The position numbers and the translations under genes are program-made. This document shows, piece after piece, positions 14,761-63,801 of a stretch of DNA of 64,000 bases (the stretch's first letter is position 1; each line of letters starts with the position of its first letter). The notes below the pieces were generated by a model. It had not been told where the DNA came from, searched no databases, and saw only the letters and a list, made by a program, of their open reading frames with translations. The stretch lies in sequence record PZ445530.1; one strand, written 5' to 3'. Source of the stretch: a phage.

Positions 14761-15086
14761 CAGAGATCATCATTTCAACTGCAGGGTATGTGTTCCTGAC
14801 AATCATTGCACTGACTATTTTGGTGACAGTGTATGGGTTTGTTATCCTTCCTATCCTTGAGACATTTAGTTTGTGTCGGTGTTGGAGAAAAGCTTACGGT
14901 CCACAACCATGGAAGGACTGGCCCCACCTGGTGCGCTTAGCGTTCTCTTATGCTTACGATCACTCCAGTAGTGCATGCATAACCGGATACCACGCCCACA
15001 ACTGGAGCTGGGAAGGATTGAGGAAATGGAATGTTACAAAGACCATACCTCTACGCATGTACAAACCTAAAAACAAAGACAGCTGA
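14757..15086 (+). CDS. putative membrane protein
   Basis: N-terminal hydrophobic segment IISTAGYVFLTIIALTILVTVYGFVILPIL. Confidence 0.5.
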   Translation: MTEIIISTAGYVFLTIIALTILVTVYGFVILPILETFSLCRCWRKAYGPQPWKDWPHLVRLAFSYAYDHSSSACITGYHAHNWSWEGLRKWNVTKTIPLRMYKPKNKDS

Positions 15087-15119
15087 TACTTGAAAATTCC
15101 TGGCATATCAAGTGTAAGG

Positions 15120-15700
15120 GGGATTTCTAAAATGGATTTCCTCCTTTTGATATTTCACCGGGCTGGATATTTTAAAATTCTTAGAAAATCAGAAAATGGA
15201 TCGAAAACTAAAATGGATTTTTCAGAGTAGGCGCGACAAGCTGAATAACTCATCCTATCGTTTGCACCATATTCCAGGCCACCATTATAGATTTTCCACA
15301 CATGCTAACCTCCCTCTACTAGAACTTCCTCCACTTGCCCTTAACCTTCTATGGTAACAATCTAACCACTATCTTGAAGTTGCGGTGCAGCTTTCCAAGT
15401 ACTCGATCTGTTTTTCATTTCATGGCTTGGATTTTCTGAAAATTTTTCTCGATAAATTTCTCAGTACTCGATCTGTTTTTCGTTTTCTGAATCGGATTTT
15501 CTGGAAATCGTTCCGGATCTCGACCTGAAATTTTTGGGGACGAAATCGATTTTTCGTTTTCAGAAATGGATTTTTAAAATTTCTATATGGGAATATTTTA
15601 TGGGATACTGTTTTATAGGAAATTGTTACGGAGGGTAATTAGCATGCTAATTAAATTTATTAAATGCGAGGAGTTCTCATTTAGAATTTTGAATGATAAT
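15120..15700. repeat. AT-rich non-coding region with short direct repeats (AAATGGATTT x4, AGTACTCGATCTGTTTTTC x2)
   Basis: no ORF with SD; repeated motifs visible by eye. Confidence 0.5.
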
Positions 15701-15900
15701 CATTCTCGTTTGCAGAATAACGGGCAGGCCCGGTGATTGTCTCCCGGCCCCTGTTGCCCCGGCTTGTTATTATAGTATCACACAGGACAAAGAAAGCAAG
15801 GATTTTTTGCATAAATTTTTAAATGATAATGATAACCGTTCTCATTTTATGCAGCGCCCATCCCCGGTGGTTGTCTTCCCCGTCACCGGTGCCTGCCGTC
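15690..15900 (+). repeat. two copies of an ~80-nt element (AATGATAAT...TTCTC.TTT..GCAG... then GC-rich CCCGG tract)
   Basis: copy 1 ~15690-15770, copy 2 ~15820-15900; followed by three CCTGGCGGGGCC motifs (~15926, ~15989, 23100). Confidence 0.4.
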
Positions 15901-16114
15901 CTTTCGATAGGTATATTGTGCCACCTGGCGGGGCCGCTGTCAACACTTTTCAAAAAATTTTTCTAACCTGATGCGCTAACCGCTGCAACCTGGCGGGGCC
16001 AGCCTGGCAGGACCTAACTGACCAGGTAGGAGAGAATGAAGGCTTGTAAACCTGGTGGGCCTATGCTATAGGACAGGTAACAATTGAAGAGGAGGTACAA
16101 AAATAAAAGGTAAT

Positions 16115-16273
16115 ATGATCCCCCTGGAAAATGTAGCTATTAATGACGCTGAGGCTATCGCCCTGGTTGAAAAGGCCATGGCGGGAGCGTTGGAACATAA
16201 AGAAGAGTACGAAAAAATGATGGTTAACCTGGCAGGGCGGCGGCAGGTGGATTCTATCATAAAAATAATTTAA
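16115..16273 (+). CDS. hypothetical small protein (52 aa)
   Basis: ATG with AAGG SD 5 nt upstream; below ORF-track length cutoff. Confidence 0.35.
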   Translation: MIPLENVAINDAEAIALVEKAMAGALEHKEEYEKMMVNLAGRRQVDSIIKII

Positions 16274-16281
16274 AATAATTG

Positions 16282-16309
16282 TTGACAACCGGGGGAGTCC
16301 TGCTATTCT
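16282..16309 (+). promoter_or_regulatory. sigma70-type promoter
   Basis: TTGACA-16nt-TATTCT. Confidence 0.5.
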
Positions 16310-16562: not shown

Positions 16563-16591
16563 TTGACATACGCCCCGACACAAAATATACT
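16563..16591 (+). promoter_or_regulatory. sigma70-type promoter
   Basis: TTGACA-17nt-TATACT. Confidence 0.55.
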
Positions 16592-17029: not shown

Positions 17030-17057
17030 TTGACACGCTGCAAAATTCAAGTAAACT
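17030..17057 (+). promoter_or_regulatory. sigma70-type promoter followed by 5'UTR hairpin GGCGGGG-atgttt-CCCGCC (~17068-17086)
   Basis: TTGACA-16nt-TAAACT. Confidence 0.5.
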
Positions 17058-17711: not shown

Positions 17712-17739
17712 TTGACAAACTAACTTAGATCGATATACT
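17712..17739 (+). promoter_or_regulatory. sigma70-type promoter
   Basis: TTGACA-16nt-TATACT; hairpin GGGAAaactTCCC in 5'UTR. Confidence 0.55.
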
Positions 17740-22260: not shown

Positions 22261-22611
22261 ATGAAAGTAAAACTATATTACCTTAATGAGCTTAACCCCC
22301 TTGCCCAGGTCCGCGCCCTGGCTAATACCTTGATTTGTGAGAAATCTGTATATTGTGTTGAGCTTAACGCCATGCGTGAACGTCTCAAAGGTGGTTACTT
22401 TGACATCCATGCTGCAATCAACGGCCTGAATATGGAATTTATCCGCTTACGTAACAACAGCCGGAATCTGGCAAGAATGGAACAAGATCCGGCCCACCTT
22501 CGTAAGCTGGTTATTGAAAATCATCTGATGTTCAATGCCGAGGGTGATTATTACCATTTTCACCGCAAACGTTGGTACCGTGGCGGCAATACAAGCAAGA
22601 ATGCAAAATAA
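22261..22611 (+). CDS. hypothetical protein
   Basis: 116-aa ORF. Confidence 0.5.
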   Translation: MKVKLYYLNELNPLAQVRALANTLICEKSVYCVELNAMRERLKGGYFDIHAAINGLNMEFIRLRNNSRNLARMEQDPAHLRKLVIENHLMFNAEGDYYHFHRKRWYRGGNTSKNAK

Positions 22612-22729
22612 GGCCCCTAGCAGGGCCTGCAGCGATATAATCACATAAAGGCTATGCGGTTGCATGGCCTTTATTATTTTAGCGTTACAGCGACCCCTAA
22701 GGCGCTTAAAAAATTTTTTAAAGAAGTAC

Positions 22730-23098: not shown

Positions 23099-23154
23099 AC
23101 CTGGCGGGGCCGAAAAGGCCCCCCAATTATGAAAATAAAGAGAGGCAAATCATC

Positions 23155-24930: not shown

Positions 24931-27360
24931 CTTCTCCTACCATAAACGGCCCTACCTGGCAAGTGGAATAATTGACTAGCCATCAATCCCACATACTGTA
25001 CAAATATACATGGAAAATAACTATTGCATAATTTTTCATTGTGTGGTAGCAAGTCCATTTTTACCCGTTTTCTCTCCCAAAAGTGCACGTAATGCCGCTA
25101 TTGCACAAATTTTAACCTGATGCACATCTCCAATATCTTGTCAACAACTAAAAATCTTTATAAGTCATACACTTACACAGCATCGAAAGCGTGTTCTACG
25201 CGAAAAATCGAGTATAACTATAGCCGCCAGATCTCAGAATTCACGTACGCACGCCATTCTATAGCCTGCAAAGTATTTATTCCAACCACAGAATAACGGA
25301 ATAGTCAATACCTGCATAAAATAATTATTCGTGCAAACTGCATAACATAAATCAGCTCAGGTGTCAACATTTTTCGTAAACAGTCCGAAATTATAACGAT
25401 GAGTTATCATAAACAGAGAAATCTTTAGTCGTCTAATGTTTACTGTACATTACTATACTGACTGGAATCATTAGATGACTAAGAGAAAGATAAGAAATAA
25501 TTAATAATGTAATTATTTTACCTGTAACAATAAGGCAACTATGCAAACGAATGGCATGGCGCGACGGAGTCGCGACATAATATAAAAGCAGTAACCATCA
25601 CCCCCGTGATAGTTTGTCTGCAAACTATTAATCAGATCATAGTTGCCTTGTATTTAGTTAATCATGACATAACAAGCAAGGCAACTATAGATCTGCTAAT
25701 AGTTGCCCTGCTTTTATATTATGTCATGCTAATTATAATCAGTGCGATTATTGTCATGTATAATTATTGTCATGCAAACGAATGGCATGGCTGATTATCG
25801 GTGTGTAAACAGTCAATCATGTAAATGGTTAGCATGTGAACAATCAGGAATGTAAACAATCCAGTGTGTAAACTAATAGGTGTGTAAAAGTGTCATGTTG
25901 TGTCAGTTAGGTCACATTATGTCAGACAAGTTTTTCTCCTCTTTGTCAAGTGCTGCATGAAAAATTTACAAACTGGTATGGTAGCATTTTTGCGGCCCTG
26001 TTTACATTCAGTAATGTATGTATAATCCTTGTTGTGTGGGCGTTTAGACGTCTAGACGGTTGGAAGTCCACAGGTCAATATCTAATCTATCGGCTGCTAA
26101 CTATATCCCACACAAATAGCAAGAAATATGATTGTTATATGCGTAAACTGTAACTCATGTTATCAATCCCTGTATGGATCGCCAGTGGTGCGCATAATGG
26201 GTATTATGTTAAATTGCCCGTAATGATAACTATTCTCACAATGATAGGTATTCTCATTCATCCACATAAAATAGGTTGCAAATGTTGTGCCACTGTGTGA
26301 ACGGCCTGGCCTATTAATTTGCCTCACTGCCTTGATATTTGAGAATTGTTATAAGAATGAGAAGTATTCCCATTTCGTCCGCCTGGCAGCACTCCTGTAG
26401 GTCAGGTCAAAATCGTGGTAGAATTGGGCCTGTTCAGATATTTCTGGCTGACTCTTCAGGTCTGTGTGGGAAAAGCCAACCTCTCCGGCGGGGCAGGGGG
26501 TCATGACGGGAAAATTGCAGGTCAATTAAAAATTTACGTGGTGTATGAAGCGCTCTTCAGGTAAGGCATGTATTATGGGATGAAACCCGCTTCAGGCAAT
26601 GATATTTGTGGGTGTGATATTTGCTGGAAAGCCAGATATGACGGGACTCCCGGCGGGGATGGGGTAGTACAGACAGGGAAAATATGAGAATGTAGTTGGG
26701 GAAATTGATCAGACAGGTAGAGTATGGAATATGTTACAAGTATGTTAAATATGGAGGTTGAATATCTGTAGGATTTGTGTGTAAAATCAAAGACTTAAGG
26801 GGTGTTGTGGTATTTTCTATAAATAATTCAAGTTTAATAGGCAATATTTGTCTCTATCCGTTTTGTGTGGTAAACAGATTCAGATTAGATTGGTTTACAA
26901 GTGTATACATAATATACAAATTAAAGATACAAGAAACCCCCCTCCCCCCTTCGGCTACCATTCACCTTTTCCTCTGACTGGTACTTAAACACTTATTCAG
27001 ACTCTTCAGGTTATCACCCATATATCATATGGCAGTGACTGGTGTCCTCCGGCCCCTCTTTCGTCACCCGTCCGCTTCGCCATGCTAATGCCATAGCCAA
27101 TGGTTCGGTTGTTCACCCTGTTCACTCAGGTGTATCTCCATACCCCTTCAAACCGAAGAGAACAGAAAACCCGAATTACTCGGTAAAAGAAAAGAGAAGA
27201 ACTTAATTTTATCAGGATAGGCAAGAATGTCAAGGCATGACTGCTCACTAAACAAGCAAACAGTCATGTGTGGAAGGTAAGTGATTGTGGTGGTGGGAAA
27301 TTTAGTTGAAAGATGTGTTATAGGTGCTTCCAGCACTTTAGCCGGGCAGCTAATTGTGTG
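24931..27360. repeat. 2.4-kb AT-rich non-coding region dense in direct and inverted repeats
   Basis: no ORF with SD; 20-bp direct repeat ATGCAAACGAATGGCATGGC at ~25541 and ~25772; inverted GGCAACTAT/ATAGTTGCC; GTGTGTAAAC x3; CTCTTCAGG x4; CCGGCGGGG x2. Confidence 0.55.
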
Positions 27361-27576
27361 TCAGTCCAGCGGTTCATCCTCTACTTCACTGAAATCAATG
27401 TTCATGGTCTCTTCCCAACCATCGATCTCAGCACAAGAGTGGAGTTCTTTAGGGTTTACTCCCAAAGCCTCAGCAACAGAGTCTATATTTAACACCTCTG
27501 GCAGGTATGATTCATCGAATTCAAGGTAAATCAGGCCACGAGTGTTGTCAGCTCCACCAAATATTTCTATCTTCAT
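27361..27576 (-). CDS. small acidic protein (MKIEI... family)
   Basis: 71 aa, acidic, N-terminus MKIEI as in other members. Confidence 0.5.
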   Translation of the reverse strand: MKIEIFGGADNTRGLIYLEFDESYLPEVLNIDSVAEALGVNPKELHSCAEIDGWEETMNIDFSEVEDEPLD

Positions 27577-27697
27577 GAAATCTCCTCTGGAAATGAGAGT
27601 GTGAACAGGGTTTTATACGTTCCGATGCACAGGAATTATGCACGTTTGCCTCTTCAGGCCATGCTTTAGCATGAGGAACCTGTGTGGGCTCGGTGCT

Positions 27698-27910
27698 TCA
27701 TAGTCTACCACCCCTGAACTCTTCGTGCTCAGGCATAATAGAGAACCAGATATCTACGATGTCTTCCCACGTTAGGTCATCAGCCTCAGGATCTACCTGG
27801 AGCGAAGATGGAGAATCTTCAGAATCTAAGTTTTCCTCTTTCACTGGCTCAGCCAAGGGACATATAGTCACTCCTTTGGATGTCTCTTCAGATGCATGTG
27901 TGTTTATCAT
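27698..27910 (-). CDS. small acidic protein
   Basis: 70 aa, Asp/Glu-rich. Confidence 0.45.
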   Translation of the reverse strand: MINTHASEETSKGVTICPLAEPVKEENLDSEDSPSSLQVDPEADDLTWEDIVDIWFSIMPEHEEFRGGRL

Positions 27911-63726: not shown

Positions 63727-63801
63727 GCCCTGTTAGCTTAGTGGATAAAGCAGCGGCCTTCTAAGCCGTTGACACTGGTTCGAGTCCAGTACGGGGTGCC
63801 A
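63727..63801 (+). tRNA. tRNA-Arg (anticodon TCT), CCA encoded
   Basis: cloverleaf folded by hand: 7-bp acceptor, GCTT/AAGC D-stem, anticodon loop CTTCTAA, T-arm ACTGG-TTCGAGT-CCAGT. Confidence 0.75.

Follow-up and report, generated by a model that had tools for sequence, protein, structure and literature searches.

A conserved non-coding region with Fur-operator-type palindromes in rV5-like phages and its possible role in replication

A non-coding kilobase downstream of replication genes

This analysis concerns a gene-free kilobase (positions 15087-16114) of a 64,000-nucleotide phage sequence (record PZ445530.1), called the window throughout. The window derives from a Vequintavirus, i.e. an rV5-like myophage of Escherichia coli: positions 15000-16300 are matched at 80-99% identity by 122 phage records, every one of which belongs to this genus of E. 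coli myophages of about 136 kb (for example MaxTheCat, FFH2 and APECc02). About 16 records labelled "Campylobacter phage" are nearly identical to E. coli Vequintavirus. The genes flanking the kilobase lie on the plus strand throughout and are annotated as hypothetical; upstream lie genes for a DnaB-type primase-helicase and for a DNA polymerase of family A, which together constitute a T7-type replisome. The kilobase contains direct repeats, palindromes of the Fur operator type and two hairpin modules, each behind a predicted leftward promoter, an arrangement that may represent a replication origin or its control region.

Constraint and coding status were assessed on an alignment of 11 Vequintavirus sequences. 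The region is non-coding, as the first-pass annotation had proposed: each of its open reading frames (ORFs) acquires frameshifts or stops in at least one relative, and substitutions favour no codon position, variable sites being evenly distributed over all three. The tiny ORFs annotated here vary from one GenBank record to another, and in many records the element is mis-annotated as small hypothetical proteins. Two ORFs annotated in several records, one of 92 aa (15693-15971) and one of 48 aa on the minus strand (15155-15301), were rejected as genes in view of frameshifts and stops in relatives. The latter is preceded by a GGAGG Shine-Dalgarno sequence, contrary to the earlier statement that no ORF here has one.

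Three blocks are nearly invariant in the alignment (15121-15230, 15389-15590 and 15640-15945). The interval 15231-15388 is saturated with substitutions, and the sequence to the right of the blocks (15945-16110) contains indels, including a deletion of 16012-16057 in two relatives whose end-points fall inside a repeated GC-rich motif. GC content drops to 0.31 at 15400-15699 against about 0.44 in the flanks, which bears out the AT-richness noted earlier. A packaging (pac) site or genome end was rejected since record starts do not fall in the region, except in one assembly. The assembly of MG065682.1 (a "Campylobacter phage") has an end inside the region at about window position 16031, amid GC-rich repeats. 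The features are, from left to right:

15121-15230, plus strand: left conserved block, with GGATTT/AAATGGAT(TT) direct repeats at 15121, 15134, 15194 and 15215 and GATATTT at 15149 and 15166
15231-15388, no strand: fast-evolving spacer, with many substitutions among close relatives; holds the DnaA-like TTTTCCACA
15389-15590, plus strand: three AT-rich iterons of about 65-74 bp, unit GTACTCGATCTGTTTTTC ... (T/C)GGATTTTCTG ... AAATTT, third copy degenerate
15591-15662, no strand: AT-rich linker between iterons and boxes, within the GC 0.31 minimum, moderately variable within the genus
15663-15681, no strand: degenerate palindromic box AATGCGAGGAGTTCTCATT, 4 mismatches of 18 to the phage box consensus
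15692-15710, no strand: Fur-operator-type 9-1-9 palindrome of module E1, AATGATAAT C ATTCTCGTT
15722-15759, minus strand: GC-rich hairpin of E1, minus-strand loop GAGACAAUCA; -21.6 kcal/mol, z = -1.25
15772-15799, minus strand: predicted promoter P1, TTGCTT (15799-15794), 16-nt spacer, TGaTACTAT (15777-15772), AT-rich upstream; predicted start at about 15765
15822-15846, no strand: two overlapping Fur-operator-type boxes of module E2 with a 6-bp offset, AATGATAATGATAACCGTT and AATGATAACCGTTCTCATT
15851-15896, minus strand: GC-rich hairpin of E2, stem CCGGUG/CACCGG, loop with GGGGAAGACAAC, outer stem GCAG/CUGC; -18.7 kcal/mol, z = -1.65
15915-15943, minus strand: predicted promoter P2, TTGACA, 17-nt spacer holding CCTGGCGGGGCC, (TG)CACAAT; predicted start at about 15908
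15944-15968, no strand: AT-rich, UP-element-like stretch upstream of P2; inverted repeat I2 links it to the AT-rich region upstream of the promoter at 16282
15984-16062, plus strand: further copies of the GC-rich motif at 15989, 16003 and about 16051

The repeats are statistically real. The iteron block, nearly invariant within the genus, comprises three direct repeats of 47-62 nt, 65 and 74 bp apart (families D1, D2 and D10; 15389-15574). The 19-mer AGTACTCGATCTGTTTTTC, reported earlier as a pair, indeed occurs exactly twice (15398 and 15463) against none expected, both copies lying inside this three-repeat family. The left block is nearly invariant with diverging flanks. All four window copies of AAATGGAT, and 7 of the 20 plus-strand occurrences of GGATTT in the window, fall within this kilobase. 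The sequence AAATGGATTT had been counted four times: the repeat is genuine (0.34 expected, and three copies reached in 0 of 100 shuffles), but exact copies number three (15130, 15211 and 15564), the fourth being the near-copy AAATGGATCG at 15194.

The near-DnaA box pointed out in the first-pass annotation is present, as TTTTCCACA at 15292-15300, but carries little meaning: relaxed DnaA boxes number 5 where 8.5 are expected, and this one becomes TTTCCCACA or TTTTCCGCA in close relatives. A DnaA-dependent (oriC-type) origin based on this single box was rejected on the same grounds. Clustering of Dam sites, a by-eye impression in other genera, was rejected as well, there being 4 GATC per kb in the region against 5.4 genome-wide and none in Hena1 and anhysbys.

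Fur-operator-type palindromes, hairpin modules and promoters

The AATGATAAT starts of the two elements are, by sequence, Fur-operator-type 9-1-9 palindromes of 19 bp, a character that the first-pass annotation had missed. Fur boxes of Enterobacterales are 19-bp inverted repeats of the 7-1-7 or 9-1-9 form. The single-dimer unit recognised by Fur is a 19-bp 9-1-9 repeat (Chen et al., PMC2189734). The phage boxes were compared with three validated Fur-regulated promoters of E. coli K-12 (ryhB, fhuA and fepA-fes), counting mismatches over 18 positions to the idealised 9-1-9 repeat AATGATAATnATTATCATT:

ryhB operator, GACAATAATAATCATTCTCATTCGC: 2 mismatches
fhuA operator, TTTATAATAATCATTCTCGTTTAC: 4 mismatches
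fepA-fes operator: 4 mismatches
Window E1 box (15692), TTGAATGATAATCATTCTCGTTTGC: 2 mismatches
Window E2 boxes (15822 and 15828): 3 mismatches each
Boxes in other genera: 1-4 mismatches
Phage box consensus used for comparison: TTGAATGAGAATCATTCTCATTTGC

In random first-order Markov sequence, 0.005 sites per 64 kb are expected by chance at two mismatches or fewer and 0.075 at three or fewer. The phage boxes match the validated ryhB and fhuA operators as closely as these match each other. The E1 box, GATAATCATTCTCGTTT, is identical to the fhuA operator AATAATCATTCTCGTTT at 16 of 17 positions, the ryhB operator agrees with the phage consensus at 16 of 18, and 15825-15843 agrees with the classic Fur 19-mer at 16 of 19; a 15-mer, ATAATCATTCTCATT, is common to the ryhB operator and the boxes of several phages. 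The ryhB site is among the strongest Fur sites of E. coli, at 25.2 bits (Chen et al., PMC2189734). Likeness extends to palindrome length and symmetry, with 1-3 mismatches to the idealised repeat, and to the 6-bp offset of the E2 double box, natural Fur clusters being typically overlapping with 3- or 6-bp offsets (PMC2189734).

There are also differences. The phage consensus has G at heptamer position 4 (TGAGAAT), where Fur prefers T. Unlike the Fur operators of Enterobacterales, the boxes lie in a virulent phage and downstream of predicted transcription starts rather than over -35 and -10 elements and, unlike Fur clusters, they form separate palindromes 28-29 bp apart in other phage genera. 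No Fur homologue is encoded in the window or in any Vequintavirinae record. RNA hairpins were rejected as an explanation of the boxes: one half-site changes without compensation in the other (e.g. AATGATAAT T ATTCGCATT), which argues for protein sites. The only promoter-like sequence overlapping the E1 box, TTGAAT-18-CAGAAT on the plus strand, was rejected as a Fur-overlapped promoter of a plus-strand RNA, since it is sub-threshold (8/12), the A2 of its -10 is not conserved across genera and no terminator follows.

On the minus strand each module is predicted to consist of a sigma-70 promoter, a GC-rich hairpin with a conserved loop and a 19-bp 9-1-9 palindrome, in that order. E1 and E2 are paralogous, being linked by repeat families D5 and D12, and a profile of 30 homologous modules matches both (15690-15746, E = 2e-20; 15828-15879, E = 1e-4) with no other full-length match in the window. 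The two related elements of about 80 nt described earlier are therefore real. Of the two, E2 is closest to the E1 of Serratia phage Kashira. The E1 hairpin is invariant within the genus except for a GG/CC dimorphism at 15727-15728 and has homologues in all genera examined. This dimorphism (GGCA-GG-CCCGG or GGCA-CC-CCCGG) occurs independently in several genera and is uncompensated in the predicted hairpin.

P1 and P2 are predicted as tandem, leftward promoters of the sigma-70 type, opposite in direction to the flanking genes and aimed towards the iterons. P2 scores 10/12 plus TG in a promoter scan. Promoter scans predict minus-strand promoters independently at homologous positions in four genera (loci L013, L005 and L006 and the window); from genus to genus the hexamers are kept, whereas the spacers of 16-17 nt diverge. 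At the position homologous to P1, for example, other genera have TTGCAA-17-TATATT, TTGATC-16-TATTAT or TTGCTT-16-TATTCT. In other genera (e.g. the Certrevirus layout) P2 has its upstream AT-rich stretch in common with a divergent promoter on the plus strand. Recognition of E1 as a promoter of an extracytoplasmic function (ECF) sigma factor or of sigma-E was rejected because neither the spacing nor the AAC core fits. The sequence TCTTTACnnnTCTTTACAAA (minus strand TTTGTAAAGAnnnGTAAAGA) recurs in several genera just upstream of the minus-strand -35 (L013 1612-1640, L006 2614-2640 and L021 4733-4757), though not in the Vequintavirus window, and could represent an UP element or the site of an activator.

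The GC-rich motif CCTGGCGGGGCC, of which three copies had been reported, is real (7 matches at two mismatches or fewer, 1.4 expected), but the region holds two exact copies (15924 and 15989) and two diverged ones (16003 and about 16051); further copies lie at 16228 and 23100. That the copy at 15924-15935 forms the spacer of P2 had been overlooked. In KaOmega the 18-mer CACCAGGCCAGCCGGGCC is the spacer of both divergent promoters, and for this reason the additional CCTGGCGGGGCC copies look like decayed duplicates of promoter spacers, or small hairpins.

Conservation beyond Vequintavirus

A sensitive search recovered a conserved core of about 75-160 nt (window positions about 15644-15808) in 249 records, almost always unannotated. 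They include Phapecoctavirus, Klebsiella Mydovirus, Salmonella Seunavirus (PVP-SE1), Certrevirus, Erwinia Henunavirus and a Serratia phage. In every genome examined the core is located in a gap of 0.8-1 kb without genes, and the order of elements, in the orientation of the flanking genes, is shared: AT-rich short repeats, three long direct repeats, one to four palindromes, a GC-rich hairpin-forming element, minus-strand promoter hexamers, a second element with its own minus-strand promoter and, finally, the plus-strand promoter of the next genes. The architecture is thus conserved across the genera of Vequintavirinae and Phapecoctavirus.

The long direct repeats are of the CTCGATC type in most genera and have other sequences in Phapecoctavirus and Hena1; triple repeats with CTCGATC, equivalent to the iterons of the window, are found in PVP-SE1, BIS47, Kashira and Certrevirus. 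The palindromes follow the consensus AATGAGAAT C ATTCTCATT and, where there are several, are spaced 28-29 bp apart. This consensus is constant across two subfamilies, while the iterons have diverged beyond recognition, a pattern that fits a host factor acting at the boxes and a co-evolving phage factor acting at the iterons. For E1 and E2 the strongest signal is conservation of the box-adjacent sequence GAAT(A/G)(A/G)C(G/A)GGCA(GG/CC)nC(C/T)GGTG(A/T)TTGTCTC, kept even in divergent metagenomic copies.

Genera other than Vequintavirus carry, in place of the second module, a highly conserved element (about 110 nt; ...CGCCACCCCACGGCGAAAAGGCGGGGCUAACGUACC..GGAAGGUGGAUCGCCGGUAG) with its own promoter. 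This element is absent from the window:

L006 2625-2745, L013 1620-1745 and L005 2660-2785, minus strand: second element, whose covarying hairpin has a loop of variable length

Its predicted structure is 98% paired, and 7 of 16 sequences show a G-C to A-U exchange; none of 500 shuffles attains its covariation score. It is a candidate for a new phage RNA, without a match in Rfam.

Some observations on the distribution of the modules may be added. In one Klebsiella-phage-like contig from IMG/VR, the E1 module is separated from the second element by an insertion of about 730 bp (L023 6312-7041). Klebsiella Mydovirus has an extra box-hairpin-promoter module about 7.4 kb from the main one, inverted and intergenic (L021 4969-5085; L014 about 4317), which suggests that the module behaves as a self-contained unit. 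A metagenome pattern scan gave 75 matches, of which only about 9 are true homologues, and a scan of IMG/VR with the flanking protein found only 2 loci. A host origin of the module was rejected: there is no match in E. coli genomes, and the 30 matches among 185k bacterial species, all in unrelated taxa, are attributable to chance.

A possible Fur-gated origin and alternative explanations

We put at about 40% the probability that the region is a transcription-activated, iteron-type lytic origin, or the control region of one, gated by the host Fur protein. This reading is favoured because the order of promoters, operators and AT-rich iterons is conserved and is oriented against the flanking genes; because the genes of a T7-type replisome lie upstream; and because no origin is known for these phages, skew analysis in the rV5 genome paper having failed to locate one (PMC3606486). 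Under this reading P2 (about 15943) and P1 (about 15799) would fire leftwards, and each transcript would pass first through hairpin sequence (E2 and E1, respectively) and then through a 19-bp palindrome. Host Fe2+-Fur, to judge from operator likeness, may bind these palindromes. Transcription would run on into the AT-rich block of three iterons and the further GGATTT repeats, and operator-bound Fur would gate the amount of it that arrives there. By analogy with the transcription-activated or transcription-primed origins of T7 and lambda, replication would then start at the region.

In the T7 primary origin the tandem promoters phi1.1A/B precede an AT-rich segment; the lambda origin combines iterons, an AT-rich region and transcriptional activation. 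The window region resembles these origins in that two predicted tandem promoters face an AT-rich, repeat-bearing and gene-free segment, in that its direct repeats are conserved in number and position among the phages and, for T7, in the type of primase-helicase and polymerase encoded. It differs in that the promoters are of the host sigma-70 type, the iterons measure 65-74 bp rather than about 19 bp, and Fur-type operators and a conserved hairpin are interposed. The origin-like character proposed in the first-pass annotation is supported by the conserved iterons, the AT-richness and the predicted promoters aimed into repeats beside a T7-type replisome module, but not by the DnaA box cited for it, which is at chance level and unconserved.

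Several points weigh against an origin of this kind. P1, read directly from the sequence, is weak (7/12 hexamer matches plus an extended -10). Relative to the starts predicted on the minus strand, the boxes are some 45-75 nt downstream, and they overlap no strong promoter, which is atypical for Fur repression, and the 21-bp palindrome arrays of other genera, with their 28-29 bp spacing, resemble phage repressor operator arrays. No initiator gene is identifiable among the neighbours, all of which fall in PHROG families of unknown function, and at the region there is neither a clear GC-skew inflection nor an enrichment of GATC sites. A second gene-poor region with three Fur-type boxes could equally be the origin.

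This second region (25300-27900, about 2.5 kb) lies where plus-strand genes stop and minus-strand genes start. It carries Fur-type boxes at 26222, 26240 and 26356 (span 26222-26374) together with GATATTTG repeats, and its counterpart in MaxTheCat, 90051-92584, has no annotated feature; it is probably the grey "non-coding" box of the rV5 genome figure. In Certrevirus, GATATTTG repeats and iterons share one non-coding region, the former standing immediately to the left of the latter.

The wider proposition, that Vequintavirinae and Phapecoctavirus, a large set of strictly lytic phages of Enterobacterales, recruit host Fur to conserved operators between tandem promoters and origin iterons, so that origin firing or the output of two phage small RNAs is tuned to host iron, seems doubtful. 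If host Fur does bind, these would be virulent phages that read a metal-stress regulator of their host, a matter of interest given the iron limitation of the gut and of infection sites. The boxes could also account for condition-dependent phage efficacy. Phages of the rV5 type are widely used in therapy cocktails and in O157 typing. A precisely delimited, conserved cis-region is a concrete target for origin mapping and phage engineering. No description of this element, or of Fur boxes in virulent phages, was found in the literature searched; each component is of a known kind, and the combination and its conservation are new.

A somewhat unlikely alternative, related to the pair of small structured RNAs suggested earlier, is that E2 and E1 are genes for trans-acting minus-strand regulatory RNAs of about 50-100 nt. 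Through the conserved loop, (G)AGACAAnCACC, they would pair with a target in host or phage or sequester it; the boxes would determine their level or where they end on the 3' side, and the iterons would be an unrelated neighbour. A conserved predicted promoter precedes each of these paralogous elements on the minus strand, its predicted start coinciding with the hairpin base. From genus to genus the loop motif is kept on differing stems, to the point that the inner stem is replaced in the metagenomic locus L061. In several lineages the E1 outer helix is kept on the minus strand through G.U pairs where the plus strand would have A x C. The second-position element of other genera, with its covarying helix, and the extra intergenic module elsewhere in the BIS47 genome point in the same direction.

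Evidence for RNA structure in E1 and E2 themselves is nevertheless modest. No intrinsic terminator (a G+C hairpin with a U-run) follows either hairpin on either strand. Stability is marginal, the minus-strand z scores comparing with -0.41 (E1) and -1.21 (E2) for the plus strand, and over 30 modules the summed fold energy favours the minus strand slightly (-484 against -459 kcal/mol). The E1 outer helix is 81.5% paired, against 21-50% in slid registers, but its covariation is not above that of shuffles, 70 of 500 reaching it. For 26 E1/E2 sequences aligned with MAFFT, RNAalifold finds no consensus structure, since their 5' arms are not in register. A gathering-threshold Rfam scan of the window returned only a tRNA gene (63727-63798), and scans at E values up to 10 of the region and eight related loci gave nothing credible. 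Moreover, the conservation is at the level of sequence and continues through the boxes.

Fur-repressed small RNAs such as RyhB, NrrF, HrrF and PrrF offer a parallel, in that the phage modules likewise join a Fur-type box closely to a short non-coding unit that forms a hairpin and is driven by a promoter. In the phages, however, the box is downstream of the promoter and not over it, there is no U-tailed terminator, and the elements share neither similarity with the RyhB body nor an Rfam match. The E1 of PVP-SE1 (L006 2550-2561, plus strand) does share with the -10/start region of ryhB the 12-mer TTGTCTCGCGAT, formed by the end of the promoter and the first bases of RyhB (L034 about 106-117). 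The identity may be fortuitous or may reflect shared ancestry; in other genera only TTGTCTC is retained.

It is unlikely that the palindromes are instead operators of a phage-encoded dimeric DNA-binding protein controlling an early/middle switch or the leftward promoters, with the Fur likeness due to coincidence or mimicry. Arrays of two to four 21-bp palindromes in other genera, 28-29 bp from centre to centre, are more lambdoid in appearance than Fur clusters (PMC2189734), and in the window the boxes are confined to the two non-coding regions. Against this, the consensus is unchanged across two subfamilies that have diverged elsewhere in their non-coding sequence, similarity to the ryhB and fhuA operators reaches beyond the core, and the E2 boxes overlap with the offset typical of Fur clusters. 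Nor is a candidate repressor identifiable, because all neighbours are of unknown function.

More improbable still is a role of the boxes as decoys, without any function in cis, that would titrate host Fur during genome amplification and de-repress its regulon (iron uptake, RyhB, NrdEF) to the advantage of the phage. At least five high-scoring sites are present in the window, up to four occur in a row in Certrevirus, and the sites are not over strong promoters. Cellular Fur amounts to thousands of molecules per cell, however, relative to which the number of sites is low, and in every genus the boxes are fixed directly after the hairpin and before the iterons, which argues for a function in cis.

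That the iterons mimic a repeat-type antitoxin against abortive infection by a type III toxin-antitoxin system is very improbable: pseudo-ToxI of Pectobacterium phage PhiTE, a Certrevirus of the same subfamily whose non-coding tandem repeats expand to escape ToxIN (PMC3475682), provides a precedent, but the present units measure 65-74 nt rather than about 36 nt (ToxI-type repeats being about 34-45 nt) and differ in sequence, the CTCGATC-type repeats are kept across phages of many host genera, unlike a host-specific decoy, and PhiTE carries the present region in addition, with its own iterons (L020), in an 8.9-kb locus without a 12-mer match to the ToxI repeat sequence used for comparison.

Two further observations concern the sequence to the right of the region. 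GC-rich hairpins, neither followed by a U-run, stand right after stop codons at 22610-22630 (GGCCCctagcaGGGCC) and 23100-23125 (CCTGGCGGGGCCgaaaaGGCCCC), the second of which reuses the CCTGGCGGGGCC 12-mer. In the "cassette island", near-consensus plus-strand sigma-70 promoters with G+C-rich spacers are found at 16282-16309, 16563-16591, 17030-17057 and 17712-17739, each before a small gene.

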